Shown piece by piece: positions 7,121 to 61,325 of a DNA stretch of 64,000 nucleotides. How positions within the stretch are numbered: the stretch's first letter is position 1; every line of letters starts with the position of its first letter. The stretch lies in assembly GCA_026770705.1 (NCBI GenBank), contig JANJGN010000036.1, forward strand, positions 2,728,001 through 2,792,000. The letters run 5' to 3'. The stretch comes from Isurus oxyrinchus. Its lineage: Eukaryota. The translations under genes were made by a program, and so were the position numbers. Below the pieces are notes generated by a model. The model saw only the letters and a list, made by a program, of their open reading frames with translations. It did not search any database and was not told where the DNA came from.

Positions 7121-9389
7121 CTCTCTTTCAGTACAGCATGTGGTGCTCTAGGGTACTTCAATAGACTGGCAGCTTGATTAGGTGTACAGTTCTCATTTCA
7201 TATCAAACATTTTCTGCTGCTTTGTGTGACAGAGGTCAGACTGACAGCGCAGAACATTATCAGGAGGGCACCTGGATAGGTCGCCAGGTAATAAACAAGT
7301 GTCAGATCTACTCAGCTTGCACCTTTGAAGAAAATGGTTTTTGACTTTTAGTTTTGCATTTATTTTCTCACCTCCCTAATTCCCACTGAAACCATGATGT
7401 CTGCTCACAGCTAAGATATGTAAGGACGATCTTTGTATCGCACTAACTCACCTGTCTTCTATTGATTCACTGGGGTATTCAAATTAAACATGAACTGCAA
7501 ACATAACAGGTCACTTCAAAATGCAGAACAAGCTTTCGAAGGATGACAATGGCAATTCATCTTATGCTGCTTCCATTACTAAGAGCAATTCACACCCAGG
7601 TGGGTCACGGTGGTCGGATGGACTATACAAATCACAATTTCTTGGACCCTAGGCACCCGGCCTAAATATGCAGAACCAGCAAAGAACTGGAGGACAGAAA
7701 CTTACTTTAAATGTATTTATTCTTTCACAGGATGTGGGCATCGCTGGCTGGGTCAGCACTTATTTCCCATCCCTAATTCATTCTGCTGGGTTCTGTCATA
7801 ATCACAGACTCAAACATACAGACATAGACACACACTCACACTCTTTCACTCTCACACGCATGGAAACAGACGACCATGCTCTCAGAAATACACTCTCTCA
7901 CAAACATACACGCTTACACAGTCACCCTCTCTCTCTCTCTCACACATATGTTCTCTCACACACACTTCCTGTCAAAAACTCGATTACACCCATACACTCT
8001 CTAACACACACTCTCTCACACACACAAACACATGCACTCTCTGACACACAAGTTCTCTCACGCACACGTCCTGTCACAAATTACACACATACCTCTCTCT
8101 CTCACACACACACTCTCACACACACACACACACATCCGCCCTCTCATGCACATGCACTCCCACACGTTCTCACAGGGAAACATTCTCACACAGACACTTG
8201 TACAACATCTAGGGTCACAGTGATAGTGGCCATTATTCTGCTTTTTATCCTCCTCTCCAGCCTCTTTCTATCTTCCATTCAACTCATTTGAATTGTATCG
8301 AACAGTAGGAACCCGTAAGCATTTGAAAAATGTTTACAGATGACTCAGCCATTCTGACAATTGGAATCCTTCTCTAATCTGTGCAGTCGAGATTTTGGTT
8401 CACAGACTTTCGCCAGCGAAGATCAAGTTGTGTTTCCTCCTTGATCTGAAATGGTGCATCTTATGAATTCACAACCTAGATAATCAAGCTCACAAACAAT
8501 CGATAATACTTTACTGACTTTATTAACTGCGATAATACAGACTAAACCAAATAGCAAATATTGAATGAATTCATCAAAGACCTTTTAGATATAAAGTTGG
8601 GGATAATTGGTAAAGTATGTAATAGGAGCAGTGGCTTCCATAGTTTAAGTTTCACAAAGCATTTCTAACAACAATCAAGTTAGCAAGACCATTACAATGA
8701 AAGGAAGGGCTGGTGCTAATTTCCAGGGGAATTGAACTGAAAAGCAGGAGAACCTGATGAAACGTAAATGTAACCTTGCTTATGGCACACACAGCCTACT
8801 GTTGGCAACATGTAATTATGGCATTTAAGGAAAGGAATAGGAAGGTTTACAATCAACTTTGGGAGATTCGGAGGCGCAGAGGTCAGAGTTAAAGTATTAA
8901 AAGAAGCTGAGAGGAAAAGGGAGGGAAATTTCAAATGCATAGTGCAGTTTCGTGCACTATCCCCGAAGCAACCTTCAAAATAAATATCCCGCAGAGGACG
9001 TCTTGCATCATATACCAAAAATGAAGTTTTTGTATATTATTCCAACAGCTGAATAAATTCAGCTCTTTTGTATCCTGTCGGATCGTCTAGCCTCTGTTAG
9101 ATTGGGGCCAACTGTGTATTAATGGTTTAGGTATAAACTGAAACTTTATGCCAGTCTGGATAATCTATAATCATTTACAGAAACACTGCATGATAAATAC
9201 TCAAATGTTCCCCAATAAGTCAATGTTCCACCAACATTGCACTGTTTCCACAACATGAAGATGGATGGGCATGGACAATGTGCACGATACGACCGCCTTC
9301 CTTCTCCCACCCCTGCAATGGCCATTTCTATTTGTTCACCTGATATAATTTTGCCAATGTTAGACTCATTGGGCGGTTACAGCACAGAA

Positions 9390-10250
9390 GAGCCAATTCA
9401 GCCTTTTGTGTCCATGTTGGGTCTCTGAAGGAGGAAATCACTTGGTCCACCCCCTCCCCATCCCCGCCGTTTCCCCATAGCCCTGGAAATTATTTTTCTT
9501 TCTATTTTCTCATAATTATCCAGTTTCCTCATTCAGGACCCTTCCACCAATGGCAACAGTTTATCCCTATCCACTGCCTTCAGACACTTCTTGATTTTTA
9601 ATATCCCTATCAAATCTCCTCTCAACCTTCTCTCCTCCCAGGGAAAAAAAGCGCCAATTTCCCCACACTAACTTTGGAACTGAATTTCCGTATCCTTGGA
9701 AACATTCTCGAAAATCTTGTCTGCAGCCTCTCGATAGCCGTCACTCCTTTCCCAACGTGTGGCGCCTAGAACTGGGCACACTACTCCGGCCGAGGCTGAA
9801 ATCAATCTTTGTATGCAGCTTTCGTATAAATTTGTGCTTTTGTACTTTGTGCCCGTGTTAATAAAATCCAGAATCCCCTGCGCTTTATCTACTGCTCCAT
9901 CAACCTATTCCGTCATATTAAATGATCTGAACACGTGTACAACCAGATGACCCTGTTCCTGAACCGCTTTTAGAATCGCAAGCTTTATTTAATATTGCCT
10001 CACCTCTTTTTTCCTAAAAAAACGGATCACTTCACACTTCTGTGTATTAAGTTTAATCTGCCGCCTGTCAGCCCATTCCACCATCCTGTCTGTGTTCACT
10101 TGAAGTCGATCACTTCCACGTTTTGTGTCAATCGCTAATTTTGAATCTGTACCCTGTACACCATTGTCTAGGACAATAATATATATTAAGAAAAGCGCGG
10201 GCCCTCAAAACCAAGTCGTGGGGAACCCCAATCCATATTTCCCTGCAGTC
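9390..10250 (-). mobile_element. Old CR1 LINE fragment
   Basis: Degenerate reverse complement of the CR1 RT C-terminal region and 3' tail. Confidence 0.55.
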
Positions 10251-10684
10251 TCCATTAATAACCAATAATTGACCGTTTTATGGGGCTAACAGACCGGAGA
10301 GTGGTTTCACAATATATTGATGGCGGGAAATGCACTTCTTAATCTCATGAATTTCCAGAATTTGATTTTTAATTGGCACAAAAATGTCTGTCAATCTGAC
10401 CTGTTTGACTCTCAATCCGCACTGCACTTGACCCTCTCTCGCTCTCTCGAACTGGATTCGAACAAAAATATCAATGAAGTATTTGGTCTTCTAATACCTG
10501 GCTGATGTGACAGAAAAAATCTGATGCAGAAAATCGTCGATCCGTCTTAGATTCAAACTTGAGAGATCATAGAGCATGTCAGCGTATTTCATGGAGTTAA
10601 TGTTGGGGTTGGACTGGGTTACACCAAGTGTTAAATATAGAGAGGGTGTTCGGTTTAAACATTTCAAATGGCCCAGTTACTCAC

Positions 10685-10911
10685 TTTTCATTGTGGGATA
10701 TTTGCCTCGTTCTCCTGAGAGTAGAATCTGTAAGTAGCAAGTTGAAACAGCGAGAAGGGACATTGGACAACCAGTTGTGAAATTGCCCCTGATAAACATC
10801 CATCCTGACCTGATCTGCCGGTTCTTTGTGTCCCAATTAAAATGAGATTCAAGAGTAGAACTGGGATCGCCGCCACCATTCTCACAACATTACAATTTGG
10901 AATTCACCATC
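10685..10911 (-). pseudogene. Relic Z: orphan type II TM exon (10810-10911) and following cytoplasmic exon (about 10685-10727)
   Basis: 102-nt exon tctctgcag|GATGGTGA...GGCAGATCAG|gtcagg is homologous to the F TM exon, with the Cys codon changed to TGA. Flanking introns resemble 48.6-49.2 kb. Confidence 0.72.
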
Positions 10912-11867
10912 CTGCAGAGACAAAACAATTATCAACTGCGCCAAAACCTGGAAAAGCTCAGCACGCCTGACAGCATCTGTGGAGAGCGATACAGTTGACG
11001 TTTCGGGACAGTATGAACCTTTATCACAACTAAAACATACAGAAATGAGATGAAATATAAGCTGGTAGAAGGGGGTGGGATAGGAGAGCTCGACAGGGGG
11101 CCAGTGATAGGCGGAGGCCCAGAAGGGACTGGCAAACATGTCAAAGGCAAAAGGACAAAGGGCTGTTCTCCCTATTTCTAACCTAGTTAAATGGTGACTT
11201 TTGGGACATTCATCTATCTTCCTATCTCTGGACCTCTCTCTGTCCCTCCCTTATTCTCTCTTTCTCGCTCTGTCTCTAACGAACGCTATCTCTATCCTTT
11301 TCGATCCAGTTAAACACTTCTGTATAAGTCTTATTCTCTTTCTATCACAGTCCCTTCATCTCCTTATCTCTATCTGTATATCGATCTAACCATCTCTCCA
11401 TCCATCTCCCCATCCATCTCTATGATCCGCTTCTCCCACTCTCCTAAATCTCCCACTCTCGCTCTCCCCTCTCTCCCCATCTCTCCCTCTTCCCCACTCT
11501 CTCCTTCTCTCCCCCTGTCCCTCTCTCCCCATTTCTCCCTCTCCCTCTCACGAACTTACCCTCTCTCCTCTATCTCCATCTCTCTCTCTCCCCTGCTCCC
11601 TCCCCATCTCTCCCTCTCTCTGTCGTTCCCTCCTTCCCCAAATCTCCGTCTCCTCCCCTCTCTGACTCTACCTCTCTTCACATCTCTCCTATCTCCTTCT
11701 TTGACTCTCTCTCCTCTGCTTCCCCTCCCGCCCATTCTCACCTCTCTCCCCCTCGTCAACTGTTTCTCTCTGTATTTCTATCAGTGATCTGCTCTGTCGA
11801 TCACTCTCTATCCATCTATCTCTGTCTGAACATTTATTTGCTGGTAAAACAGTGTTCTATATACCTC

Positions 11868-14200
11868 TAAAAAACAGAATTACCTGGAAATACTCAGTAG
11901 GTCTGGCAGCATCGGCAGAGAAGGAAAGAGTTGACGTTTCGAGTCCTCATGAACCTTTAACAGAACTGAATGAATATTAGGAGAGGGGTGAAATATAAAC
12001 TGGTTTAAGGTGAGGTGGGGGTGTGGGGAGAGAAGTGGGAGGGGAGGTGTGGTTCTAGGGACAAGCAAGCAGTGATAGGTGCAGTTAATCACAAGATGTC
12101 ACAGAAAAAACAACAAAGAAGTGTTGAAGGTGGTGATATTATCTAAATGAATGTGCTAATTAAGAATGGATGCTCGGGCACTCAACGTACAGCTCAACTG
12201 GCGGTGGGGTGGAAAGACTAGCAGGGCATAAAAGATTTAAAAATAATGGAAAAAGCGGGAAAAGAAAAATCTATATAAATTATTGGAAAAATCAAAAGGA
12301 ACGGGGAAGAAACGGAAAGGGGGTGGGGATGGAGGAGCGAGTTCAAGACCTAAAGTCGTTGAAATCAATATTTAGTCCAGAAGGCTGTAAAGTGCCTAGT
12401 CAGAAAATGAGGTGCTGTTCCTCCAGTTTGCTCTGGGCTTCACTGGAACAATGCAGCAGGCCAAGGATGGACATGTGGGCAAGAGAGCAGGGTGGAGTGC
12501 TAAAATGGCAAGCGACATGGAGGTTTGGGTCTTTCTCGCAGACAGACACAGGTGTTCTGCAAAGCGGTCGCCCTGTTTACGTTTGGTGTCTCCAATGTAG
12601 AGGAGACCCCATTGGGAGCAACGAAAGCAGGAGACTAAGTTGGGGAAAATGCAAGTGAAATGCTGCTTCACTTGAAAGGAGTGTTTGGACTCTTGGACGG
12701 TGAGGAGAGAGGAAGTGAAGGGGCAGGTGTTGCATCTTTTGCGTGGGCATGGGCAGGTGCCATAGGTGGGTGTTGAGGAGTAGGGGGTGATGGAGGAGTG
12801 GACCAGGGTGTCCCAGAGGGAACAATCCTTACAGAATGCTGCCGGGGAGGTGAAGGGGAGCTATGTTTGGTGGTGCCATCATGCTGGAGTTGGTGGAAAT
12901 GGGAGAGGATGATCCTTTGAATGCAGAGACTGGTGGGGTGATAAGTGAGGACAAGTGGGACCCTATCATGTTTCTTGGAGGGAGGAGAAAGCATAAGGGT
13001 GGATGTGCGGGAGATGGTCTGGACACGGTTGACGGCTCTGCCAACAACCGTGGATGGAAAACCTCGGTTAGGGAAGAAGGAGGACATGTCAGAGGAACTG
13101 TTTTTGAAGGTAGCCTCATCAGAACAGATGTGACGGAGGTGAAGGAACTGAGAGAATGGGATGGAGTCCTTACAGGAAGCTGGGTGCGAGGAGATGTAGT
13201 CGAGGTAGCTGTGGGGGTCGGTAGTCTTGTAATGGATATTGGTGGACAGTCTATCACCAGAAATTGAGACAGAGAGGTCAAGGAAGGGAAGGGAAGTGTC
13301 AGAGATGGACCACGTGAAAATGATAGAGGGATGGAGATTGGAAGCAAAATTTAAAAAGTAACCATCGATGTACCAGAGAAAGAGTTGTGGGAGGGGGCCG
13401 GAGTCGGACTGGAACAAGGAATGTTCCACATACCACATAAAGAGAGAGGCATAGCTGGTGCCCATGCGGGTACCCATAGCCACACCTTTTATTTGGAGGA
13501 AGTGAGAGGAGTTGAAGGAGAAATTGTTCAGTGTGAGAACAAGTTCAGCCAGGCGGAGGAGAGTAGTGGTGGATGGGGATTGTTTGGGCCTCTGTTCGAG
13601 GAAGAAGTTAAGGGCCCTCAGATCATCCTGGTGGCGGATGGAGGTGTAAAGGAATTGGAAGTCATTGGTGAAGAGGAAGCGGTTGGGGCCAGGGAACTGG
13701 AAATTGTTGATGCGACGTAAGGTGTCAGAGGATTCACAGATATAGGTGGGAAGGGACTGGGCAAGGGGAGAGAAATGGGATTCAAGATAACAAGAAATGA
13801 GTTCCGTGGAACAGGAACAGTCTACCAGGACAGTCCTGTTTGTGGATTTTGGGTAGGAGGTAGAAGCGGGCCGTCCTAGGTTGTGCGGCTATCAGGTTGG
13901 AAGCTGTGGGAGGACGATCTCCAGAGGAGGTGAGGTCAGTGACAGTCCTGGAAACAATGGCTTGATGTTCGGTGGTGGGGTCATGGTCCAGGGAGAGGTA
14001 GGAGGAAGTGTCTGTGAGTTGACGCTCAGCCTCCACGAGGTAGAGGTCAGTGCGCCAGACAACAGCAGCATCACCCTTGTCAGCGGGATGGTGACAATGC
14101 TGGAGTTGGAGCTGAGAGAACGGAGTGCAGTAAGTTCAGAGAGAGAGAGATTAGTATGGCTGAGAGGAGCAGAGAAATTGAGATGACTCATGTCATGACG
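11868..14200 (-). mobile_element. Penelope-like retroelement, decayed (RT + GIY-YIG endonuclease)
   Basis: Minus-strand ORF pieces PRTARFYLLPKIHK, AMGTRMGTSYASLFM, FLWYIDGYF, LPFLDLSVSIS, and CFRCSQWGLLYIGDTKRKQGDRFAEHL (YIG). Frameshifts and an internal deletion are present. Confidence 0.85.
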
Positions 14201-14482
14201 AGCCGTAAAATTAAAGCTATGTCGATCAGGAGTGATGTCAGGAAGCAATTCGTCACACAAAGGCGACTGTAAATTTGGAGCTCTCTCCCTTCAAAAGCTG
14301 TTGAGGCTGCGGGATCAATTGGAAATATTAAAACTGAGATTAATGGAGTTTTATTGGGTATGCAGATTAAGGATTATAAAACCAAGGTGGGCAGATGGAA
14401 GTTATTATACAGGCCCGCCGTGATCTGATTGAATAGACTGGAGGGTATAAATGGCCTCCTCCTATCCCTATGATGATGTTAA

Positions 14483-15512
14483 AAGCAAAATACTGTGGAT
14501 GCAGGAAATCTGAAACAAAAACATAAATAGCTGGAAAAACCGAGCAATTCTGACAGCATTGGGGGAGAAGAACACAGAGTTAACATTTCGAGTCTGAATG
14601 ACTCTCCATCGGAACCTAGCAATATCGAAATGTGGTAAAATATAAGCCGGTTGTGGGGGTGGGTGTGGGACAGGTAGAGCTGGATAGAGGGCCAGTGATA
14701 GGTCGAGGCAACGAAGAGGTTGCCAAATATGTCATAGACAAAATGGAAAGACGGAGTTGACGGTGGTGATATTATCTAAGGGATGTGCTAATGGTAACAT
14801 TAAGAGTAGAAAGCAGGACAAAAAATGGCAGATGGACCTAGTGAGGGTGAGGTGCGGGAAAGGCATCGGAATGGGTTAAAAGGTGGAGATAAAGTGGTAG
14901 ATCGCCATAAATTTAATAATAGGCGGAAAAAGGAAAATATATTTTAAAAAATAAATTTGGAAAAGGGGGTCAGAAAGGGGGTAGGGATGGAGGAGAGAGT
15001 TCATGATATGCTGATGTTGACGTAAATGTTAAGTTTGGGTGGCTGTAGAATGCATAGTCAGAAGATGAGATGTTGTTCCTCCAGTTAGCGTTGAGCTTCA
15101 CTGGAACATTGCAGCAGGCCAAAGACGGGCATGTGGGCTTGAGAGCAGGGTGGTGTGTTGAAATGGCAAGCGACAGGGAGGTCTGGATCATGCTTTTGAG
15201 CAGACCGAAGGTATTCTGCAAAGCGGTCAGCCAGTCTGCTTTTGGTCTCTCCATTGTAGAGGAGACCACACTGGGAGCAGAGAATGCAGTAGAATAAATT
15301 GAGACAAGCGCTTCACTTGTAGGGAGTGTGTGGGCCCTTGGACGGTGAGGAGGGGGCAAGTAAAGGGGTAGGTGGAACACCTTCTGCGGTTGCATGGGAA
15401 GGTCCCGCGGGAGGGGGTTGAGGTAAAGCTGGTGATAGAAGAGTGGACCAGGGTGTCCGGGAGGGAACAATCCCTGCAGAATACGGCCATGGTGGGGTGA
15501 AGTGAAGATGCA
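14483..15512 (-). mobile_element. Second Penelope-like element 3' fragment
   Basis: Clear nucleotide similarity to 11868-12860 (endonuclease region and terminal repeat). Confidence 0.78.
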
Positions 15513-15614
15513 TTTCAAAAGGGTTCTATGAAACTTGAAGAGAAGGTAGAGCAATCTCAAGTGTGGGACATATGGCGATGTTGCCTAGCAATCAGGGTCC
15601 AGGAAGGAAGGCTC

Positions 15615-15624
15615 ACGCACACAT

Positions 15625-15670
<46 letters not shown>
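15615..15670 (+). repeat. (CA)n microsatellite
   Basis: Direct observation. Other CA/CT arrays at 7800-8195, 45430-45492 and 47345-47697. Confidence 0.95.
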
Positions 15671-15674
<4 letters not shown>

Positions 15675-16424
15675 AAAAAGAGTCAGTTTGTGCTCACTGG
15701 AAAGCAACTGCCAGAGAGAGGCTGGAAAGAGCAGGGCTACCAATACCAAGTCCCAAACTGAAGTCGAAGCCAAGACTCCAGATAAGGAGTCAACTAGGTG
15801 AAGGGACTGCAGAGAGCAAAGTAAATGAAAGTTCTCAAAGCCAAGGAGTGAGACCGAAACGGTACAAAGTCCCAAGAATGCTTTCCAGGCAAATGAAGGA
15901 CGGGAACCTGGTGTGGAATCGATTAGATATGTAGATATGCTCATTTTGCCATGCAATCTACCTGGGGAGTCACAGGAAGAAAGTTCTGTTCACGCTGCAT
16001 CTAAACCTCAGCTCCTCACGGACAAAAAGGGCAGCTGCCAGTGAGGGAGAAACACCATCAGACACCCACTGTGCTGCCACCGGAGAAGGTGGTTAATGAA
16101 CTGAATGACCCAATTCACATCCAAGTTTGATTATTCTTAAATTGAATCATTAATCTGCTCGGAGACTAGTTGAGAGGAAATGGTCCATGAGCCCTTCAGA
16201 GACAAAATTAAAATGGTTTGAAATTTATAATGACGAATTCAAATACTTTAAAGATGGATTTGTAGACGTTTGCTGATTATCAAACTCTGACACTCTTCAC
16301 TGGTAGGATTTATTCTTCAGGATAAATCAGACAGAGGATTTTATAAAGATGTTGCCCAAAATATTGTCTTCAATTTTAGTCGTGGATTATTCGATGAATG
16401 CACTTGTTTTACCGACATTCCGCA

Positions 16425-35019: not shown

Positions 35020-35154
35020 AAAAACAAAGAAAACTGCGGATGCTGGAAATCCAAAACAAAAACAGAATTACCTGGAAAAACTCAGCAGGTCTGGCAGCAT
35101 CGGCGGAGAAGAAAAGAGTTGACGTTTCGAGTCCTCATGACCCTTCGACAGAAC
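35020..35154 (-). mobile_element. Young Penelope terminal fragment in gene D intron
   Basis: Essentially identical to the reverse complement of 60288-60421. Related copies at about 10935-11165, 25400-25555 and 27010-27150. Confidence 0.8.
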
Positions 35155-36287
35155 ACAGCTCTGCGACAAGTAGATAGATTAAGAGCGCTCCTGAGTTACA
35201 ACATCTCCCTACAATCTCTTCCTGTCTGCTGGTTCTTGCAGATCCTTCTCCCGGCGAGCAAGACTAACGCCAGAAGGAATACCGCCGCCAACAAACTCCT
35301 GGAATGCGAGAAACTGCAGGGGGCAGGTAGCGGTGAATCTGGAGAGCAAATAAAAAAGCATTGTATTTGAAAATAAATCCGGTAACTGAAGCCTTTTGAC
35401 TCTGACAGAACGTTCAAGTAGACTCTAGCACACCGGAGCTAGAGATGGGCAAATAATGTCAGTCTTGTTAATATCATCATCTCCGGGTCATGAAAAAAAA
35501 CGCTGAAACACATTAGAAAAGCAAAGCGAATTTGAAAAGCTGAAATCAGATGGATGGATATGGAGAGTTAAATAGAGTTAGAGGGACAATTATAGAGGTA
35601 GATAGATGGATCGATAGAAGGATAATTGGATAGATAGAAAGGCAGACGGACAGGTAAGCAGAGAGGCAGGTAGGTAGATAGATAGATACACACATATATA
35701 CTCACGTACACAGATAAATGCATACATACATAAATATATGTAAGGACAAAAATATGACAGCACTACACAAGAATGACCAGAGTGGTGTGGGACACAGGAT
35801 GAAGCAATGGGGCCTCCAAGTTTCTGCTGACCCTTCAAAGTCCACATTGCAATTCAGCACTTCCAAACCCCATCAAACTCATCCATCCCCTGCATTCATC
35901 TAACTTTCTATCCATCTTCCCACATCTACTACAAGCTGCACGCTTTATAATTTCCCAATAGCCATCTTGTGAGGCACATGAAGTCCTGTGGAAATCCATT
36001 CACGTAATATCCAACGTATTCTCTTTAAATATCCATTCAGACATTTCTTCAGCATAAAAGCTCTATTCAACTCTTTAAACATAACCACACTTTCACAAAC
36101 CGGTGCGGGCTGACCTTAGCTACCCCATCTACTGAGAAATGCTCACCTATTTCATTTAGAATAATGGATGGTAAAAGTTAGACCGCCAGTCATGTTAGAC
36201 TGAGTTGCTTATAGTTCCCAAACTGACTTCTATGCTCTGCTTTTGATTCAACATTAGGATTAGAAGGTTTTTGCTAGGAATGATGAC

Positions 36288-36435
36288 GATTAGGGTTAAG
36301 GTTCTGCTTAGGTTTGGGTAAGGGTTAGGACTAGCATAAGGGTGAGGATTAAGGCTGGGATTTTGGTTCGGGTTCGGAGCAGGTTTCACGTCAGGGTTAG
36401 GATTAGGGTTAGGATTAGTGTTAGCGCTAGGGTTA
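36288..36435 (+). repeat. Degenerate TTAGGG-like hexamer array
   Basis: tagggttaag...gggttaggattagggttaggattagtgttagcgctagggtta. Confidence 0.6.
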
Positions 36436-36479
36436 TACACTCACTGGAAATGAGTCTAAATCGGATATAGGAGCAGAGT

Positions 36480-37190
36480 GAAATTGGTTACAGACACAAA
36501 CACACATGGCATCAGAAACAGAGTTTAATAAGGCCACAAAAAGCAACACACCCAGCACTGGGAGTAATGCCTAAATAAATTGAAATGAAAAATAGAAAAA
36601 CCTTTGTTGAAGTTATCATTAGATTAGTTGGACAACACTTGTAGTCATGTGAACAACTTTCATCTCAAGAGTATAAAAATAATATAGAGCATTGGAAAGG
36701 GGGTAACAAAAATCCTTTACCTGGATGACATCAACGCTGAGAGGTTATAATTATCAGAAAGCTTGAAAAGACTGGGGTACTTTTCTCTACAAAAGAACAG
36801 ACGAAAGGTTGACCTGATGGAGATCTTTAGGCTTTTGAAGTGGTTTGTGAGGATAGAAGTAGAAACATTTTTTCGACATTGTAGGGTAGAGAACTGGTCT
36901 CTGGGCCATCAATAAATAACAGTCCCTAATATCTCCAATCAGGGATTGAGGAGAAATTTATATACCCAAAGAATAGGGAGAATGTGGAACTCGTTACTAC
37001 AAGGAGTGGTTAAGGTGGATAGCACAGATGCATTTAGGGCAAAGCTGGATAAACACATGAGGTCGGAAGTAAAAGAAGGATATGTTGATTCTGTGATTTA
37101 AAGTGGGAATGGAGAGGGCTTGTGTGGAGCATAAATAGCAGCACGGAGCAGAGGAGCCGAATGGCCTGTCTCTGTCCTGGAAACTCTGTG
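36480..37190 (+). mobile_element. Old CR1 LINE 3' fragment in gene D intron
   Basis: Degenerate similarity to 17.0-17.7 kb, ending in gccgaatggcctgtctctgt. Confidence 0.55.
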
Positions 37191-46244: not shown

Positions 46245-49200
46245 TTATTTGTTTGAAAGGAGTCTCCTTTGCTCCATGTTGATTTCCACAAAGCTGTTGG
46301 TTCTTTGGCAATTCCTGTCTCCTCCATAATTCATCAGACAGAAACAGTCCCGAATCTCAGCTGCGACCTGCCTCTTGTTTGATTTTTTATCCAATGCAAC
46401 CAAGTCCAGACAGGCGTAGAGAGGTCTGCCTTGGGTCTGGGAGACATACTTAAACATTAAAAATCGAAAGTAATAAAAGGACAAGTCAGCTTATCCACTT
46501 CCCCAACCGCGTTTCATAGAGTCATGGAATGAAGCAGCGCAGGAGGAGGACATTCGGCCCATTGCGTCTGTGCCAGCTCTGCGAAAGAACAATGCAATTA
46601 AAAACATTGTATCTTCTCTGTCCCCATATCGCTGCGAGTATTTACCTTTGACTGTGTTTTTGTAATTCCTTCTTGATAGTTATTATTGGACCTTCTTCCA
46701 ATGCCCTCTATATCAGTTTGAGGATTTTTTTGCTTCATCTGTCTGAATTGAGACAGTGAAGCAGGACCCGGAAAGCAACCGAAAATCACCAAAGTTTAAT
46801 CAGAAAACTGGGATGATGAGTTTATCAATTTGATTGGATTGTATTGTTGTTAATTAGCCAATCCGATCCCCATGTTTCATGATCAGCCATCTACACGATT
46901 GAGTAGAGCCAACAGCACGAATCACATTCCGAGGAATCACACTCACACACACCCAAAAGTAAAAGACTTGCGTTCTCTTGGCCTGTCACGAACTAAAGAA
47001 TCCTCAGAACATTTTACACTCACCTATTTCAGGTGTGGTCTCTATCCTTATTGCAACCGGACAGCCAGTCTGCGCACAGTAAGATCCCATAAACCACAAT
47101 GTTGTAATGACCCAGATTGTTTAAAAGATGTTGGTTCAGAGACATCGTAAGAAACGGAGCACCAGGAAGAGCCGCTCCCCAACAGCCCAAGCACTGCTCT
47201 TCTTGCAATAGTGGAGGTGCCATCTTTTAATTGACCTGAGAGGGCAGACAAGGCCTCAGTTTAATGTTTCATGCGCAAACAGCACCTCAGACAGCGCAGC
47301 ACCTGCTCTGGTGGTTCAGTATAGATTTTCTGCTCAAGTCTCTGGATACACACGCACACACACACTCACACACAGAAATNNNNNNNNNNNNNNNNNNNNN
47401 NNNNNNNNNNNNNNNNNNNNNNNNNNNNNNNNNNNNNNNNNNNNNNNNNNNNNNNNNNNNNNNNNNNNNNNNNNNNNNNNNNNNNNNNNNNNNNNNNNNN
47501 NNNNNNNNNNNNNNNNNNNNNNNNNNNNNNNNNNNNNNNNNNNNNNNNNNNNNNNNNNATACTCACACGCACACACACACACACACAGACATAAGCACAC
47601 AAAGTGCGCACACACATGCATGGAGATGCAGACACAGTCACAGACACACACAAACACAGACATACACACATTCACACACACACATACACACACACACTTT
47701 CTGCCCGAACTGGTTCCATCTTTGTCAATTTACAACGGAAATACATGTTGATTTATCTATAAAACTCCTTTGGGTTTTGCCTTAACTTATTCGTAATTCC
47801 ATTGGCTAATGTACTTACTGAATTGGTTGGCGTGGGGAGTCAGAAAGGTGGGAAACGAGGGAGGGGGATTCGACTCACTGTAGGCGCAAATAAAAATAGC
47901 AGAAAGACAAAAAGTTTAGCTGCTGGAAATCCGCAGTGAAATTACTCTGCCCTTTGTATGGACAGATGGGGAGAGGAACTTGGGGTTATGTTCTGATTCC
48001 ACGTAGAGGGATGAGTGGCATTTAGTACAAATTTAGATGTTCCAGTCTGGGACCTGGTTTCTATTAACCATCTGAAATGTGCAGCATGGGATTCCTTGCA
48101 GCTTATCCCAGAAAAACACGTGTTTGTATATTATTACAACAGTGTAAAAAAACTCACCGTTATTGCATCCTGACATGCCTGCTTAGCCTCTGTTTGACGG
48201 TGGTCGCCTGTGTTATTAATGGTTATGATCAGAATTGAAATGTTTCCCAGCCTGGCTAATCCATAATTAATTACAGACACACCATGTGACAATGATCCGC
48301 AAATCTTCCAATTGCCCCAATATGTCAATGGGCCCCAGATGTCAATGGAGCCCCAATCCACCGAAGCTTCCCCAATACGTGAAAGGTCCCTCAATAATTC
48401 AGTGGAGTGGTATTCATCATTGGGTGGACAGGCACTATCTACTCCTGGTGCTAAGCATCTATTCTCCATCTGGTCTATTACTAACAGTATTTGTACCAGT
48501 AATTGCAATTTTTTATAGGGCCCACAGGCAGCAGAGCGATTGTAAAACATTTTGATAACAGGGAATGGTCTTAAGCATTTTTCCAATTCCAGCCACTTGT
48601 CATTCAATCCGTGCTAACATTTGAATGCAACTTACCCGTGTGCAGCTCATTCTGTCCCTCTCTTTGCCTTTTCCCTCTCAAGCTAAAACTGGCTTCAAAC
48701 AAAAAGATCAAACATGTCTTAAGTCTTTTAAATCCTGGGCTCAAGTGCCAGAAAATGTTGAGAAGGAATTTGTCGAGTGGTCGTAGAATAAATCTTAAAA
48801 GATCATGGAAAATGTCAGCATATATCATTGGAATCAGAGTTGGATTTCAAACGGGTGAGGCACATTGTCCAATATAGAGAAGGTGCTCGGGATGAATTTT
48901 GCAAATGGTTCAGTTACTCAATTTCCATTGTGGGATCTCTGGTATCGTTCTTCTAAAAGGAGAATCTGCAATTAGCATTTCAACACTACAAGAAGGGAAC
49001 CAAGTGAGACAAACAATTATTAAAATGTCCCTGATAAATATCAATTCTCACCTGATCTGCCGCTTTTAAGAATCCAAATGGAAATAAGGACCAAGAGTAG
49101 AACCAGTATCACCAGGACAGTTATGAGAACAGGAGGGGCCAGACTGCACCATCCTACAGAGACAAAACACTTAGAACCTGCTGCTCGGTCAAATCATCCT

Positions 49201-51025
49201 TTTCTGGGATTATCTGATGGGAAAAGTGACCCAAATGGAAGCCCAGAAACAGTCCATTCGAACGATCGTGCCAGTGCAGGCCCTTTGAAAGAGGTATCTA
49301 ATTAGTCCCATTCTCCCTGCTCTTCCCCGCCCATAGCCATGTAAATGTTTCCCCTCCAAGGACTGATCCGATTCCCCCTTTTGAAAGTTCCTATCGAATC
49401 TGCTTCCACCGCCGTTTCAGGCAGCACCTTCCAGATCACAGCAACTCGCTGCGTTTTAATGAATTCTCCTTATCACCCTGTCTGGTTCTTTTCCCGATTC
49501 TCTTCAAGCTGTCTCCTTCTGGTTACCGACCCCCCTGCCAGTAGAAACATTTTCTCCCATTTGACTCCATCGAAACCCCTCATAATTTTAAACGCCTCGA
49601 TTTAATGTCCACTCGATCTTTACTGTTCTAAGGAGAACAACACGAGATTCTAGTTCCTCCACATTAACTGAAGTCCGCCATCGCTGATCCCATTCAATTA
49701 AATGCCCGCTATACCCTCTCTAAGGCATTCTTGCCTGTTTCCTGCTTCTAAAGTACATCCAGTGCAGAACGGACGTCAAATCCATTCCAAAGTGCACCGC
49801 CTGTGAAAAAAAGCAGTGGAAGTAGATTCAACAAAAATTTTCAGAAGGAAACCCCGTTATGACTTGGACAGGGAAATGTGAAAGGGCTTTGGGGAAACTG
49901 ATTTCAAAGTTGAATAAAAACCTTCATTGTTGAAATAACATTCTCACCTGCCCCTACTGCTTTGGGGAACGACACGCACTTTATCCAATATTTGACTGAA
50001 GACCCCAGTTGAACAATACAAATACAAACAGCGGCGCTTCTCCGGGTTTCCCTCAGCACCACGACGTGACTTCTGATACTGTAGGTCCCATCCGCCTCCA
50101 TTGTACAGGGATCTCTCAGTCCATCAGTGGCCAGGCCGGAAATATTCCAGAAAATAACAATCTGGTTGGAAGAAACTCCACTGACCAAACACACTAAGCG
50201 GACCGTTTCCCTCAAATGCAGCTCACCTGCGGAGCAAACATCAGCACAGCCGCCTTGTTGGTGGAACTCTCTGGACAGAGATTGAGGCACAGTTAGTGAT
50301 TAATTTGCACGAAATGATAATGCTCTGCATGATCGGAATTCATTTCACTTGCTCTCTCACCTCCAACCAGTAGTGTTGGTGCATTCTATATCGGTACATC
50401 GCTACCCCTACGAGCACAGTGATAGGAACCCGAGTCATTCACCTGGACATTGCGAATTTCCAGAATCATCAAATTTGTGCTGTTGCCTTTTTTTGGAAAT
50501 AAACTTTCAACCGGTCTCCTGACAGGGCTGGCGGTCGATTAGTGTCGGGGCTTCACCCACAGGGTGGTTGTACCAGAAATAGTGAGACACCGATTCCACT
50601 TCGTAACCGCACGGATTCCACCGTCTCTCCGACTTTAGCTGTCGTGATGATGGGGCTCTGAGACAGGCAGGGTTCGGATTCTGCAACTAGAGGGATTTTT
50701 GTTACATTATCACTGGTTAATGAGGGATAGGAAGCTGCCGCTTTGAAACATTTCACATTTAATTTAAGCAAAGTTACATCATTGGCTTTACATATTCTTG
50801 GTTAGATTAATTCTCCAATTAGATTTTTTTCGCTTCATAAGAGGAACTAGTAAACATACTCACATGATTAGGTCAAACTCCTTCACCTGGCCTCTGGGTT
50901 ACATTTTCAGTTTAGTAAACACTGATTCTGGCTCATTCAAGTTTCAAATTCTCCCCTGCCTCTTACTCACCATATACCCGCAGCATTTGGAGAATAAGCA
51001 TCAGAATTAACGATTCCAATGACAT
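46245..51025 (-). pseudogene. Gene F: type II V-C1-TM receptor pseudogene (divergent subfamily)
   Basis: Leader 50971-51025 MSLESLILMLILQMLRVYG|gtgagt. V 50361-50680 (SQSP..KVGETV, FWY, NDSGSYHC) has a frameshift and two stops. C1 49948-50270 (LVCLVSG, FWNISG, DGTYSIRS, CICIV) has a frameshift. TM 49052-49153 encodes GWCSLAPPVLITVLVILVLLLVLISIWIL. Candidate cytoplasmic exons are 48922-48965, 48158-48207 and, from 46436, TQGRPLYACLDL. Confidence 0.8.
47380..47558. other. Assembly gap
   Basis: Run of N within a CA repeat. Confidence 1.
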
Positions 51026-52239
51026 CTTGACGCGCTGAGTATTTCCTGTTTTCGCTCTCACCAGTTTAGTGATTGCAGGCGGAGTGGCCGCAGACAGCCC
51101 TGAGCTCAGTCGCAGTCAACAGCTTCACTTTCAGATGCGTTGGAAACTATGACGAGTTATGCTATGGAAAATATGACGCCATTTTGGGTGGGTGTCCTGG
51201 TGAATACCACATGCATTTTTCATACTGTGGTCACCGTTTGTGCGTCACAGCGGCCAAGTCGCAGCATGTTTATAAATAAATTTACTGGGTTGTGGTTCAT
51301 TGTGTCGAGGGTGCGGGTGTCAAAGAATACTAATTGGGTGTATGGATGCTGAATAGTGTAGTTAAAGTTTATTTCATTCTGGGGATATCATGGCCTCTGG
51401 CAAGGCCAGAATGCATTAACCATCACCGAATGTCACTTGGGAAGGTGGTGGTGAGCTGCCTTCCTGAACCACTGAAAGTACACACACAGTGCTTTCAGGG
51501 TGGGAGTTCCAGGATTTTGAATCAATGACAGTGAAGGAACTGTGATGAATTTCCAAGTCAGAGTGATGAGTGGCATGGAGGGGAATTTGCAGTGGGCGGT
51601 GTTCCCAAGTATTTGCTGAATTTGGATGTCAATGTTGCAGAGTACGCAGGTTTGGAAAGAAAACGCCAAGAATTTAGTGTTATGTGATAATACTCACTAT
51701 TAGCTATTCTGTAAACAGGTTGTACAGGATTCGTAAGACATTCTGGTTAACACAGAGACTGGATGAAATGTATGTGGATTAATTTTAATTTTAATTACAT
51801 GTATCTTATTCAATATGCACAAATTACGCAAAGGCCTAGAGAGGAATTCTAATGCAACAAACACGATCACTCACTGCACTTATCGAGAATCTAAATGAAC
51901 GAATCTCTTTCGAATTCAGTTCTGCCCCTTAAAATGTTCGTGCACCGTCCTCCTTTCTGCTAAGTCACATTGAGTAGGTTTTCGGACTGACTTATTCTAT
52001 TATATAAAGCGCCAAGGGGGGTTACCGTGAATTCAGTTCATTGTTCAGTTCTGAGTTCATTGTTGAATTCTAATTACCAATGACTTGAGTGATAGGTCCC
52101 GTGAAGAGAGTTTCAAACAATAATACATCTTTCACTTTGCATTGTTATCTAAGCGCGTTTACAGCAGTTCAATGGAAAATTCACTGCACAGTTATGAATT
52201 TGACGTTGTCGTTAAGCTGCTTTGATGTTGCAGTTTACA

Positions 52240-53270
52240 GAGTTACATAGAACGTACAGCACAGAAACAGGCCATTCCGACCCGAATACTCGTGCTTGTG
52301 TTTATGGTCTGCACGAGCCTTCTCCCACCCTCTCTTCATCTCAGCCCAACAACATTTCCTTTTATTCCTTTCTCCCGCATTTGTTTATCCAGCTTCCCAC
52401 TGAAATGCATCTCTGAAATAGACTGAAGCATTCCCTTTGGGAGCGGGTTCCAGAATCTCCCCTGGGTAAAGATGTTTCCCCTGAATTTCAGACTGGCTTT
52501 ATCTCATATTAATCACCTCTCGTTACGAAGGGCGATAGGAACACAGGAGCAGGATTAAGCCATTGGGCCATTCGAGACTGCTCCACCATTCAATAAGATT
52601 ATGGCCGATCTGGTTGTGGCCTCAACTCCACTATGCTGTCTGTCGCTCATACGCCTTGACTCCCGTGCCTAACAAAAACCTGTCCGTCACGGGGCCTTGA
52701 ATAAATTCAAGGACCCATCCGCGACTACTTTCTGGGGAAGAGAATACCACACATGAGTGACCCATTGGGTGAAAACAAATCTCGTCATCTCTGTCTTAAA
52801 AAGGAGACCTTGATTTTTGATCGATGTCCAGAGATTTGGCAACAACAGGAAGCACCTTCGGGGTATCCGCCCTATCAAGGCCCCTCAGGAACCTATATGT
52901 TTCAATACCTTTCATTCCTCTAAACCCCAAATGGAATTTTTGAATTCTTGAGTGATGACCAATATTTTTGAAATCCTGCAGAATTAGAGCCAGCTTCCCT
53001 ACGGCTGCCTATTTGGACCATTTCATAATTGTAAAGACCTCGATCTGGTCGTCCCTCAATCTCTCATCCCCACCCTCCAAAACACTTTTTAGAGAAACGA
53101 GCCTCAGCCTGTTCATTCCTTCCTGTTATTTATAAGCTCTCAGTTCCCGTATCATCCTTGTGAAATATTAACTGCACCTTTATCAATATCTCTGTATCTG
53201 AATATGGAGAATATTTCTCGAATATGCAGGACTGTGTTCTGTACTCCAAGTGTAGTCTAACTAATGTGAA
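52240..53270 (-). mobile_element. Nested CR1 3' fragments between genes F and E
   Basis: Typical CR1 3' tails on the minus strand (cagcacagaaacaggccattc; ggagcaggattaagccattgggcc...). Confidence 0.5.
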
Positions 53271-53334
53271 TACATACCTGGTGTATTTTGGAAATCAGAT
53301 GATGCGTGCGCGACAGCACTTTGACCTGCGCTAA

Positions 53335-53349
53335 ACAGGAAAACCACAG
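53335..53349 (+). promoter_or_regulatory. Candidate ETS + RUNX composite site upstream of gene E
   Basis: ACAGGAAAACCACA about 175 nt before the ATG. Short motifs; untested. Confidence 0.3.
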
Positions 53350-53517
53350 AGAGTTGTCTACCTCGGCACTATTTTCCAACCCCCATCGTTTAATAATAAA
53401 CATAGAACGCCATTCAGGCTGCTTATTTCACACCTCCTTCGCACCGAAAGAATGAGAGCGAGTTCTCAGTGAGATTCGGATCGGGGCTCAGAGTCTGACC
53501 GCCTGAAGCCAGGGACA

Positions 53518-53560
53518 ATGAGATACCTCGGTGTGTGTGCATTGTCCCATCTCTTCCAGG
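53518..53560 (+). CDS. Gene E leader exon
   Basis: ATG...CAG G|gtaaga, 43 nt, phase 1, MRYLGVCALSHLFQ. Homologous to the 43-nt leader of D (MRLLTSCALLHLFP). Confidence 0.8.
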
Positions 53561-56500
53561 GTAAGATATCCTAACATTTTCAGATAGAGTGAAGGAGGGT
53601 TGAGATAGAGTAAATAAGGAGAAAATCGTTCCACTGGAAAGAGGATCGGTAACCAGAGGGAGACAGATTGAGGAGAGGAGAGCGTTTCAGGTAAACCATT
53701 AGAGAAAGTTATAATTTTTTGAACAAAATAAATTGCACAACGTCAGCGGAAAATAAGAAATAGCGAAAGGTGAATGAGAGAAAAAATTTTAAAAATTGGG
53801 AATTTTAAGTCATTAACTTCAGTTCCCATGTGCCTACCCCAGTAAATAAAACAGAATTGCTGGTGAATGGACTCGTACAGTGCCTTTGGAAAGACCGGGG
53901 AAAACAATGCAAACCATCGCTTAGTCAGCCCGATTTTAATTGTGTGCGGGTGCAATTTTCCCATATGGACTATTTTTAAATAAACGATTCTGCTTCCTCC
54001 ATATCGGGGTGCATTCGCCGGTGTCTGTCTTCGGGGGCGTCGGGTTGAGGGTGCGGGCTGACGGGCTGCACAATACCCTGAGATGACTTTTTTTTTTCAC
54101 TCTTGCTCAGTTATTGTGTCTCATCGTCTCTTGTCCCAGTCTCCGCCGGTCAAGACACTCACTGCAGGGAGTCGCGCCAAACTGAGTTGTCACACGGAAA
54201 GGTCCAAACCTGGGCTCATCTTCTGGTACAGACAGCGAGAGCGAAACGACATGAAGCTGGTTTACACAGCGCATAAGTTCAGCGCAGCGGAGGGGAGGTT
54301 TTCCCGCGAGATTTCTGACAAAGCGGGTTATTATTCACTGGTCATTGCGGATACCCGGAGAAATGACTCTGGAATGTATTACTGTGCCATCCGCAATTAC
54401 CAGAACAGGGCCTTAATATTCGGAAATGGATCCCAGTTAGTGATTACAGGTAAATTTCGTCATTATTCCGTCGCTTTTGGCATTTCCACAGCAATTAAAA
54501 GTCTCTGGTTTCAACTGTTAATGGTTTGTCTGTTTCCTTTGCCAAATTTAGAGGACTCCCCGACCATTTTCCTCCTCACCTCGCAAGAGGATGAGATTCC
54601 TTCGGTGGAAAGGGTCCTGTTGTGTTTGATCAGAGGCTTGTCTCCCGATTCCTTTTCCGTCCGCTGGAATATTTCCGGGCGGGATACCAAGGGAAAGACC
54701 GATTCCGGGACAATTGAGTCGGACGGCACCTACACCATCAGGAGTTACACCAGCCTCTCGGCGGAAACTTGGAGCAGCGGCGCTCTCTGTACTTGCGCCG
54801 TTCAAATCAACTCCAGTGAAAATCTTCTCAGTGCAAGTGTCGCATCTCAGAGAGGTAGCTGCTAACAGTGACCGTTTACCGACCTATTTATTGCTGATGG
54901 GAGGCTTTGACAATTTTGTAAATTAGAATCGTGCATCTTTCCGTGTGAGTCCATGCATCACCATTTTATAATTGACCTATCACAGATCTCTCAATGTTTC
55001 AGAGTTTATCTTTCTGAAATTTTAACTCTACCTGTTCTCTCTACCCCAGAGAGCTAGGGTTGCTCAGTCACTGAGCTAGATAGTTGTACACTAAGGGAAT
55101 ATGGGATCCGGGCAGTGTGGGTAATGTGAAGTTGATGTACAATATTAACCATGGTCTTATTGAATGGCGGATACCCTTCTGGGATCAAACATCTCCTGCT
55201 CCTATTTCTTGTGTTCTTGTGTTTGGCTCGACATATTGACATGGTTGCATGCCAGTGGATGACTTGTCAATGTGAATAATTGTAAGGTTTGATTGCAGTC
55301 CCAGCGTACCTCTCTGTCTCACCATGCCTGTGTACAATTACCTATTCATCTCTCGATCTACTTAACATCGCAATATTTACGTCTGTCTCAGTTAAACAAT
55401 GAGGTATAAGGTATCTTCTCCACCTGTGTGTCTGTCTGTTTATCTGTCTTTCCATCTGTCTCACTCTCTATCAATCAATCCATTTCTGTCCTACTGCAGT
55501 CTAAGATATCTGTTTTCCTATTTGTCTGCCTATATATCTGGCTGTCTCTGTGTCTGAACAGAACTCTCTACAACTCCCACTCTCTCTCCCTGTCTCTCAC
55601 AGTCCCTATTACTTTCTCCCTGTCTCGCACTCTGTCTATGCTTTGAAACATGTATTGAACTCTCTATCTATCTCACTCTCCCTTTGTTCATCCTGTCTAT
55701 TTCTATCCTGGTTAAATGGTGCGTTATAAGACATCTGGGACATTCATCTATCTTTCTATCCTTCGACCTGTCTCCATACCTCTCTCTGTTTCCCTCTGTC
55801 TGCATCGTGCTCTCTGCCTCTCTCTCTCTCTTTGCCTCTATCTCGCTCTCTTATAATTTTCCATCCAGTTAAACCGCTCTGTGTTAGTTTGCTGCTTTAT
55901 CTATCACACTCTCTTGACCTCTCCGACTCTATCTTTCTATTTATCTCTCAATCCATCTTTCCACCCATTTCTCCGTCCATCTCTCCGCTCTTCTCTCCAT
56001 CTCTCCACCATCACTCCTCCGACTCCCCCTCCTTATCTCCCCCATCTCTCCTTCCTCTCTCTCCATCTCTCCCACCCCTCTTTTCTCACACTCTCCCTCT
56101 CTATCTTTCTGCCTATCCCTGATCTCTCCATCTCTTGTCCACTCTCCCCATCCCTCCCTCTCTCCCCATTTCTCCCTCCCCGTCTCTCCTTAACTCTTCC
56201 TCTCTCCAAATCCCCCTCTCCCCTATCTACCACCTCTCCCTCTCTCTCACTCTCTCCCATCTACCCCTCTCTTCCTCTCTCCACAAATATCCTTTTCCTC
56301 AGCATCTCTCCCTCTCTCCCTGTATCTCCCTTTCTCTCAATCGTTTTTCCCTTTCTACCCAACTTTCCTCTTTCGCTCTCTAATTCCTCTTATCCCCGTT
56401 ACCCCTCTCTCCACCTCTCCAATTATTTATCTCTTTTTTCAACCTAGTTGAGCAGTTTTGTATCAGTGACCTACTCTCTCGAACACTGTCCGTTTCTCTC

Positions 56501-57986
56501 CGGTTTAACATTTCCGTGCTATTGAAACAGATCTCCATCCATTTTTCTCTGTCATTCTCCCTCTATCTCTCTCTTGTTATCTCTCTATCTTTCAACGATT
56601 TAAATAGTGCTCCATAAGATCGTTTCTCTCTCTCTCTCTCTATTTCTGTCTCCGATAAACAGTGCTCTATCTATTGCTCTGCCTCTCAGTGTTCTATTCA
56701 AACAGGGCTATATATGATTGTTGCTCTCACTTGCTATCAATTTGTCATTCTCTTCCGCTATCCCTTCTGCCTCTTTCTTTCTCTTCCAACTACTGTCCGG
56801 TCTCGCAGTTGTTCTATAAGATCTCTGCTCTATTTTCAGGATGATGAAATATGGAAATATCTATTTCAGTTTTCGAGTGAAATCGCAAATTCAGGTTTGT
56901 CATTTTTTCACTTGTTTAATTAATTCCACCAAATTTATTTTCAATGAAAGCTTTTTTGCAGATTCTCCGCTACCTGCCACCTGCAGTTTTCCGCTTTTAT
57001 GGAGTTTGTCCGCGGCGGCGCTTCTCCTTCTGGGGATGATCCTTGTGGCCGGGAAAAGGAGCTGCAGGAACCAGCAGACAGGTAGCGATTGTTGGGGGGA
57101 CGCTGTAATTCCGCGGTGCTCTCAATACATAACTTACTCAATGCGTTCTTGACACTTTCAGCCGGTTCAGAGGGAAATGGAGCCATTTATGTTCAGTGTG
57201 AAATGTAGCCATTGATGCTCAGTTCAAATTTTACTTTCTAACAGGCAACATGAACAATGATCAGGAACTGACAGACTCCAGGTCACACCGACAGAATGAA
57301 GAGGTAAAGGAATGTAACTGTTGTTGCCACTACACGTGAATGCGTTTCACTGATTTGTTTTATCTAAGCTTTAAAATTCATCATTATTATTGTAAGAGTC
57401 AGGAAAACATTGCGTCATGTGTAATTCAGGATGGAAGAAATTAGGCTTCAATCCGTCTCGTTCGGGGAGATTGAGGGACAATCTGAGCGGTTTAAGGTGA
57501 TAAAAGGACACAACAGTGTCAATAGAGAGAAACCGTCTGCTCCGGTGGCGAGGAGGGGTGGGGGCAGATTGGTACAGGGAGTAGCGTGAGGTTGGGATGG
57601 GGTGGTGGGGGGAGGGGTGGTGGTGGTGGCTAGAGTCCAGGGCTCAGAACCTTAAAAATAGAGCCAGGTCGTTCACGGTTGATGTCCGGAAACCTGGAAC
57701 TCTCTCCCCTCAAAAGCTGCTGTGGTGAGGTGCCAATTGGAAATGTCAAAATTGAGACTGACAGATTTTTTTTGGGTACAGGGATTAAGGATTAAGGAAC
57801 CAAGGTGGGTAAATGGGAGTTATGGTACAGATCCGCCATGATCTAACTGAATAGACTTGAGGGGCTGAATGTCCTCCTCCTATCCCTATGATGATGGTGT
57901 TTGTTATATTTATATATTCGGTTTTTATTGTTTCTCCACAGACACTTTATGCCCACTTGGCTTTTAAGGAGAATCCCAAACTCTGA
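53518..57986 (+). CDS. Gene E: intact non-rearranging VJ-C1-TM Ig-superfamily receptor (type I), 6 coding exons, 302 aa
   Basis: Exons are 53518-53560, 54111-54449, 54552-54854, 56962-57081, 57245-57303 and 57942-57986 (909 nt). All introns are GT-AG with compatible phases (1,1,1,1,0) and there are no stops. Protein: MRYLGVCALSHLFQ-V(C..WY..D.G.YYC..FGNGSQLVIT)-C1-DSPLPATC-TM-...EETLYAHLAFKENPKL*. Equivalent exons of matching size occur in paralogs B and D. Confidence 0.88.
54111..54449 (+). CDS. Gene E V-set exon with J-like G strand
   Basis: tcttgctcag| acceptor and ACAG|gtaaat donor. Motifs KLSC, FWYRQ, GRFS, YSLVI, DSGMYYC, FGNGSQLVIT. Confidence 0.92.
54552..54854 (+). CDS. Gene E C1-set exon
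   Basis: tttag| acceptor and AGAG|gtagct donor. Motifs PTIFLL, LLCLIRGLSP, VRWN, DGTYTIRS, WSSG, CTCAV follow the C1-set pattern of Ig/TCR constant domains. Confidence 0.88.
55690..56780 (+). repeat. Pyrimidine-rich (CT) low-complexity intronic tract; paralog at 11170-11850
   Basis: Shared unique anchors gttaaatggt...gggacattcatctatc and tccagttaaac. Confidence 0.8.
56962..57081 (+). CDS. Gene E connecting peptide + transmembrane exon
   Basis: ttttttgcag| ... ACAG|gtagcg. Encodes DSPLPATCSFPLLWSLSAAALLLLGMILVAGKRSCRNQQT: uncharged hydrophobic span with a membrane-proximal Cys. Confidence 0.85.
57245..57303 (+). CDS. Gene E cytoplasmic exon 1
   Basis: ctaacag| ... GAG|gtaaag, 59 nt. Homologous 59-nt exons occur in A, B and D. 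Confidence 0.82.
57942..57986 (+). CDS. Gene E terminal coding exon with ITIM/ITSM-like TLYAHL
   Basis: tttctccacag|ACA CTT TAT GCC CAC TTG...TGA, 45 nt. The homologous 45-nt exons in B and D encode TLYARL. Confidence 0.82.
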   Translation, partial: TLYAHLAFKENPKL

Positions 57987-61010: not shown

Positions 61011-61325
61011 TTAGTGTATCTCAGGCTGTTTTGTCCCGGGCTCCAGCGGTTCATAATCTCTCGCTTGGAAGTACCAACAATGTGCATTGTGAGACGGCTT
61101 AGTTGGCGGTGCTGTTGTGGGTCGGGGGTGGTGATGGGGAGAGGGAGGGGGCAGGGGCGGTGCTGCGGAGGGTGCGTGGGCGGTTCTAAGGAGGGGGAGG
61201 GTGCGATCCCCTGGTATAAACCTAATCCATTTGCCACTGGTTTATACCGTGACAGAATACAACCATCTAACAAGGTTATTTTCGGGGTAAGTTAGCGGCA
61301 CAGGCAGTGTCTATTCTCTAATCAT
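61011..61325 (+). pseudogene. Gene G: truncated type I V exon (paralog of A)
   Basis: VSQAVLSRAPAVHNLSLGSTNNVHCETA*. Acceptor AG>GG, a G-rich insert at CDR1, and WYK and YSLI still recognisable. The sequence then jumps to the post-C intron, so the V 3' end and C exon are deleted. Flanks 60.1-62.4 kb match A flanks 18.2-21.5 kb. Confidence 0.78.

Follow-up and report, generated by a model that had tools for sequence, protein, structure and literature searches.

Head-to-head non-rearranging VJ-C1 receptor genes of the shark Isurus oxyrinchus, duplicated as a pair and possibly encoding disulfide-linked heterodimers

Chicken PRARP, from 2019, and Xenopus VJC1, from Ohta et al. 2019, are reportedly two non-rearranging VJ genes (variable, V, with joining, J) with a transmembrane segment (TM) and an inhibitory-type tyrosine tail; the layout outside birds is said to be V-C1, and the recombinant proteins reportedly form disulfide-linked homo- and heterodimers. 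The origin of the two-chain design of T-cell receptors (TCRs) and antibodies before RAG is an open question, and the current shark candidates, UrIg and UrIg2, are homodimers. UrIg has 3 and UrIg2 9 or more C domains, and both are linked to the major histocompatibility complex (MHC) or to the immunoglobulin (Ig)/TCR complex (PMC12227049). The NITR of bony fish, germline VJ receptors with both inhibitory and activating members, lie in clusters and evolve by birth and death (PMC7916673). The stretch analysed here, called the window, is 64,000 nucleotides of the genome of the shark Isurus oxyrinchus (contig JANJGN010000036.1; G000:C36:2,728,001-2,792,000 in our numbering). Two of its genes, E (type I, plus strand) and F (type II, minus strand), are read as one copy of a head-to-head, non-rearranging VJ-C1-TM pair that was duplicated as a unit and whose chains likely form disulfide-linked, TCR-shaped inhibitory heterodimers, probably with partners from different copies. 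The probability of this reading is put at roughly 0.58.

Gene E (53518..57986) is intact, with an open frame of 302 residues over 6 exons and canonical splice sites. The exons are a leader exon (53518-53560, ATG at 53518), a single exon for V and J (54111-54449), a C1 exon (54552-54854), a connecting peptide/TM exon (56962-57081) and two tail exons (57245-57303 and 57942-57986) that end in TLYAHL. Pfam gave 48.8 bits for V-set and 42.3 bits for C1-set. The V-C1 intron (54450-54551, 102 bases) is in frame and without stops, so that V and C1 form one 267-codon open reading frame (ORF); such stop-free in-frame introns were also seen in many other type I copies. In contigs of two small-share runs (one sample, presumed RNA; relatives' sequences from one study), type I exon coverage stopped at 54449, 54854 and 57081, and one contig of the same set spanned the type II last exon. 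These contig ends are the predicted exon borders, a weak check of the exon model.

Gene F (46357..51025, minus strand) is a pseudogene. Comparison with intact relatives gave 8 exons for type II genes, and those of F are a leader exon (51025-50971, ATG at 51025), a VJ exon (50686-50361), a C1 exon (50270-49948), a Cys/TM exon (49153-49052) and tail exons at 48952-48922, 48688-48636, 48207-48158 and 46436 to about 46357. The V and C1 exons carry frameshifts, the donor after the first tail exon is lost, and the last exon has a 1-base deletion. Because this deletion leads to read-through, an earlier reading made from the letters of the window (the sequence-only reading) had placed the end of F at 46245; the extension (46245..46356) lies outside the normal type II coding sequence, and the placement was corrected. 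A candidate tail exon at 46742-46646 was dropped, its splice sites being unconserved.

The remaining anatomy of the sequence-only reading held for both genes, including the disabled state of F. E and F diverge with ATGs 2,493 bases apart (53518 vs 51025), both C1 exons have WNISG, DGTY(T/S)IRS and CxC, and each chain has one membrane-proximal cysteine just ahead of the TM (PATC in E, GWC in F). Outside C1 the chains differ: identity of E to 13 intact type II chains was 28-34% in V and 19-28% in the TM exon, with 36-43% in C1. No charged TM residue was found in E or F. Elsewhere in type II, the C'-C'' region of the V domain holds two additional, paired cysteines (CxGxxC type, e.g. L011:3267-3599, minus strand), the J motif is degenerate (LQNG type), and the first canonical V cysteine is gone in some intact frames.

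The cluster to which E and F belong spans about 3.5 Mb on contig C36, where all scored matches to the C1 of E (150/150) and of F (150/150) fell within 0.58-4.11 Mb. A first look gave 83 candidates for the TM of type I and 87 for that of type II; for the leader region of type I it gave 61. When C1 positions were taken from match lists by identity rank (54 type I, 79 type II), a divergent type II C1 lay 3-8 kb from the type I C1 in 31 of 54 cases, against a mean of 4.2 and a maximum of 12 in 2000 randomisations, so the divergent pairing is not due to chance; no convergent or tandem I/II order was found within 10 kb among these positions. At the level of genes, for which 1.57 Mb of DNA was fetched, the type I leader faced a type II leader within 4 kb in 32 of 39 genes (30 of them at 2.3-2.9 kb), and the other 7 leader-bearing type I genes included 6 with a divergent remnant of type II no more than 7 kb away. 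Same-strand, I-I or II-II arrangements within 4 kb were absent from this DNA.

The intergenic DNA aligned end to end in 18 pairs (85-99% aligned, 63-83% identity per 100 bases). Distances between type I genes tracked those between their type II neighbours, with a Mantel rho of 0.58 (p 0.0002) for 18 pairs and 0.57 (p 0.002) for the 14 non-redundant ones. On geometry, colinear intergenic DNA and this correlation, the divergent I/II pair is a duplication unit, as the sequence-only reading had proposed. A dead third gene stood behind the type I gene in 18 of 25 cases, so the unit is often larger than the pair. At 1845801/1848308 and 2577634/2580140 lie near-identical copies of E/F, in which F carries the lesions seen here. 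Large recent segmental duplications were seen on C36 at 1.8-4.0 Mb.

Fixed spacing and colinear intergenic DNA are also what would be expected if each neighbouring pair encoded a co-regulated obligate heterodimer under a single bidirectional promoter, the strong form of the earlier proposal, and in three pairs, among them G000:C36 632222/634547, both genes are intact through the TM. The structure of the intergenic segment (51026..53517) and the survival of neighbours make this version improbable. Old repeat fragments lie mid-segment, with repeat-like depth at 51312-51735 and 52160-53007, and the conserved elements adjoin each ATG, 2.5 kb apart. On the type I side this is an element (53335..53349, plus strand) about 180 bases upstream of the ATG, composed of what we take to be an ETS-like core, present in 24 of 25 type I genes, and a RUNX-like motif, present in 22 of 25. 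On the other side, the type II proximal upstream region (51026..51375, minus strand) is the sole part retained by type II genes that lost their type I partner: among 12 such unpaired genes tested, 10 retain just 240-340 bases of shared upstream DNA, and opposite 8 of the 12 an inverted type II TM relic stands in place of type I. Because conserved elements adjoin each ATG and unpaired type II genes retain their own side only, the evidence points to two proximal promoters, one per gene, rather than a single shared one. A TATA-like run at 52000-52008, mid-intergenic, is conserved among pairs.

Genes were scored as intact when open through the TM with canonical splice sites. Among type I genes 24 of 39 qualified, and among type II genes 13 of 67 (20 of 67 type II frames were open when odd acceptors were allowed). 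In 32 cis pairs, both genes were intact in 3, only type I in 18, only type II in 2 and neither in 9, and the intactness of neighbours was uncorrelated (odds ratio 0.75, Fisher p 1.0), in counts that are not independent because recent duplicates are included. Intact type I genes in cis pairs had a broken neighbour in 18 of 21 cases, E being among them in three copies that share the lesions of F. With 3 of 32 pairs intact on both sides, no correlation and a second type II module that lacks the type I side, strict cis co-dependence is not supported.

The same lack of correlation, and the persistence of a type II module without the type I side, would be expected if the two types were independent single-chain or homodimeric inhibitory receptors whose head-to-head order is an old inverted duplication carried along. 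Each type has its own tyrosine tail, a single cysteine suits homodimers equally, and UrIg2 is a disulfide-linked homodimer (PMC12227049). Independence is nevertheless judged somewhat unlikely, since the two types have complementary residues fixed at the V interface, a heterodimer model passes, and both types are retained together in sharks and rays. At the first interface position type II has Pro (12/13) where type I has Met (17/20), and at the second type II has Leu (11/13) where type I has the J-strand Phe (20/20). Light and heavy chains (VL/VH) of antibodies show a comparable interface asymmetry, and the opposition of type II Pro to type I J-Phe and of type I Met to type II Leu may likewise make the V interfaces of the shark chains complementary. 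All intact chains compared carry the membrane-proximal cysteine: 20 of 20 in type I, counted without redundant copies, and 13 of 13 in type II.

A complex model of the ectodomains of two Heterodontus proteins, P0005 (type I) and P0028 (type II), scored 0.62, the best of 3 controls scoring 0.00, with at least 79% contact agreement between runs and a partner pLDDT (predicted local distance difference test) of at least 77. Of the solved pairs, 51 of 78 attain the score mark used, as do 2 of 108 mismatched pairs (71 of 105 and 2 of 126 for eukaryotes). V-V and C1-C1 packing is predicted, with contacts between Phe118 and Pro68 and between the C1 sheets, and Cys237 and Cys239 are both interface residues in the model. 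A single-chain AlphaFold2 model of type II had a pLDDT of 44. The idea of a disulfide-linked heterodimer thus stood in part: the cysteine is invariant in intact chains and the I+II model passes, but neighbours as obligate partners were not upheld.

The dN/dS values are those expected of a live, diversifying receptor family: for framework and C1 the ratio was 0.45-0.53, and for loops like the complementarity-determining regions it was 0.80-0.97 (CDR-like; single loops 0.17-1.53). Of the full models, 21 of 22 for type I and 7 of 7 for type II have a tyrosine motif in the tail, of the TLYARL type in I and the PLYASL type in II. Both are like what we take to be the consensus of the immunoreceptor tyrosine-based inhibitory and switch motifs (ITIM/ITSM); the type II motif has Pro at -2 and is no textbook ITIM. 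In a type II gene at G000:C36:982664 (minus strand, L034-L035) the TM has an Arg and the first tail donor is lost, and P0016 of Scyliorhinus canicula has a TM Arg without a tyrosine tail; both are possibly an activating form.

Under the heterodimer reading, the V domains of types I and II would pair to give one six-loop binding surface, held together by the C1 domains and the cysteine at the membrane. The combined site would bind a cell-surface or microbial ligand, and the tail tyrosines would recruit SHP phosphatases for an inhibitory signal; CD3 association would not be expected, because the TMs are uncharged. Since most intact chains have a dead neighbour, partners may be drawn from other copies in the cluster (assembly in trans), or E-like chains may form homodimers. 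Gene E itself, beside the dead F, could use a type II chain of some other locus in the cluster, because each gene has its own proximal promoter-like region, or could act as a homodimer.

Several points weigh against this reading. The pass of P0005 with P0028 may come from likeness to Fab and TCR complexes, which the tool may remember because such structures are solved, and antibodies and their close relatives lie outside its calibration. The model, moreover, does not separate hetero- from homodimer, and homodimers are plausible because the C1 interface is nearly symmetric. Predicted interface positions showed no extra conservation over other positions (p 0.22-0.93). Intact type I genes exceed intact type II genes, 24 to 13; intactness was called by automatic exon projection, and the fetched DNA behind the geometry and intactness counts was part tiled, part targeted and included recent duplicates. 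The head-to-head order was seen directly in the Isurus oxyrinchus genome only. Finally, the tree that puts the split of types I and II before that of sharks and bony fish has a support of 91/88, and a duplication in elasmobranchs only was not rejected by the approximately unbiased (AU) test (p 0.149).

Both chain types were found in other elasmobranchs, sharks and rays alike. Type I relatives comprised 9 proteins from five shark species and type II relatives 25 proteins from seven; in Cetorhinus, Heterodontus, Mustelus and Carcharodon, the two types were on records of equal length. Type II and type I proteins of Mobula birostris with consecutive accessions on one contig are a hint of adjacency. 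A profile search, in which 30 proteins were looked up, placed the family in rays, chimaera, coelacanth, lungfish, bichir, paddlefish, amphibians, turtles, lizards and alligators, and none of the matches bore the name PRARP. In a 29-row tree, shark type I joined one tetrapod lineage (support 91/88), and in a quick tree of 51 rows (2 of 53 skipped) support was 93 for shark I with the tetrapod group, while shark II stood with a second bony lineage at 90. Two lineages appear in sharks and rays and probably in tetrapods.

A further proposal, on which we place little weight, is that the pair is a living relic of a two-chain antigen-receptor precursor from before RAG, with a VH/V-beta-like and a VL/V-alpha-like chain, split, linked and kept from sharks to reptiles. 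In this shark it might have grown into a repertoire that is germline-encoded and combinatorial: with at least 24 type I and at least 13 type II chains, each able to join any chain of the other type, hundreds of binding sites would arise without rearrangement. With a linked non-rearranging VJ-C1-TM pair and its complementary interfaces there is a heterodimeric model concrete enough to be tested, and the sites of intact cis pairs are at hand for cloning. Should the chains mix in trans, sharks would have a germline combinatorial repertoire of inhibitory receptors, a candidate for their natural killer (NK)-type receptors; should they form only homodimers, this would be a receptor cluster of the usual birth-and-death kind whose orientation is inherited. 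The I/II pairing and the intactness counts in the cluster are new here. The literature searched held no account of the shark cluster or the pairing, and Fu 2019, Ohta 2019, Flajnik 2023, Dornburg and Yoder 2022, or their supplements, may have one.

Other parts of the window carry remains of the same family. The sequence-only reading had described a second minus-II/plus-I pair as a relic at 10.7-14.5 kb; the relic is real but thin. The type II 3' half (8982..10939, minus strand) retains a TM with a stop and tail exons (TM and tail exons at 10911-10401), but on the type I side (11171..16300, plus strand) all exons are gone and only intron and downstream-flank fragments remain, interrupted by retroelements. 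The intron remnants at 11171-11870 and 14197-14478 had best matches of 77-83%, inside type I genes. Reverse-transcriptase-like retroelement fragments lie in and after the relic pair, at 12671-13888 (minus) and 16307-17069 (plus). A leaderless, type I-like third subfamily occurs at 18996-22374 (plus), 23228-26535 (plus), 34460-38196 (minus) and 61011-61333 (plus), the last being a dead V exon downstream of E, where the usual third member of the module stands. Every inspected copy was broken; P0066, P0086 and P0111, from other elasmobranchs, are apparently intact relatives. The flanks of the cluster (200 kb left, 100 kb right) were mostly repeat, and Pfam, run on 150 of 343 filtered ORFs, found no usable marker gene there, only a ribosomal-protein fragment and two sub-threshold matches. 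To the left of the cluster, a single ORF at L138:5360-5749 (plus) codes for a stretch of 60S acidic ribosomal protein; it is probably a processed copy.

The parallel with TCR chains drawn in the sequence-only reading stood for overall shape and for the membrane-proximal cysteine, and failed for rearrangement, TM charge and tail. In TCR alpha/beta and gamma/delta chains, too, the layout is VJ-C1-cysteine-TM with a connecting-peptide cysteine in both chains, and V and C1 are likewise paired in the shark model. In the shark genes, however, V and J are in one germline exon with no recombination signal sequence (RSS), the cysteine lies inside the TM exon right at the membrane, and an uncharged TM is followed by a long tail with tyrosines, whereas the TM of TCR chains has basic residues for CD3 and is followed by a very short tail. 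That the cluster consists of germline-joined Ig light chain or TCR genes is very improbable. Automatic database names of the relatives ('immunoglobulin kappa/lambda light chain-like') and best PDB sequence matches, which are antibodies, favour that assignment. The exon structure contradicts it, with a V-C1 intron of about 100 bases and both a TM and a tyrosine tail where light chains are secreted without either; there is no RSS-like site in the window and no charged residue in the TMs of E or F, and the relatives are a separate family of about 300 residues throughout jawed vertebrates. A search of NCBIfam gave no match.

NITR have a second domain of intermediate type. That of the shark genes is C1-set, and the shark chains come in two complementary types arranged head to head; germline VJ receptors under birth-and-death are common to both systems (PMC7916673). 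With UrIg and UrIg2 the shark genes share non-rearranging single-exon VJ and C1 domains, and disulfide-linked dimers, described there and predicted in the shark pair; they differ in having one C1 exon each, two chain types and a large cluster on C36 (PMC12227049). Among 33 MHC class I matches none was on C36, and matches were on C21 and C16. The E/F genes are not TCR, Ig light chain, UrIg or NITR genes. The cluster is best read, by analogy of architecture, as a PRARP-like family. Like PRARP and VJC1, E and F have V and J in one germline exon and no RSS-like site in the window (the VJ exons, 339 and 333 bases, are single and finish with a J-like strand), a single C1-set domain behind V (Pfam over cut-off) followed by the TM, and an ITIM/ITSM-like tail. 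The shark family also has two lineages, possibly shared with bony vertebrates. The same architecture was found in relatives from turtles, crocodilians, lizards, amphibians, lungfish, paddlefish and bichir. The difference is one of number and decay: amplification of the shark pair has led to some 60 type I genes (61 candidates) and, for type II, to about 87 candidates over 3.5 Mb, in which most copies have decayed and neighbours are rarely both intact.

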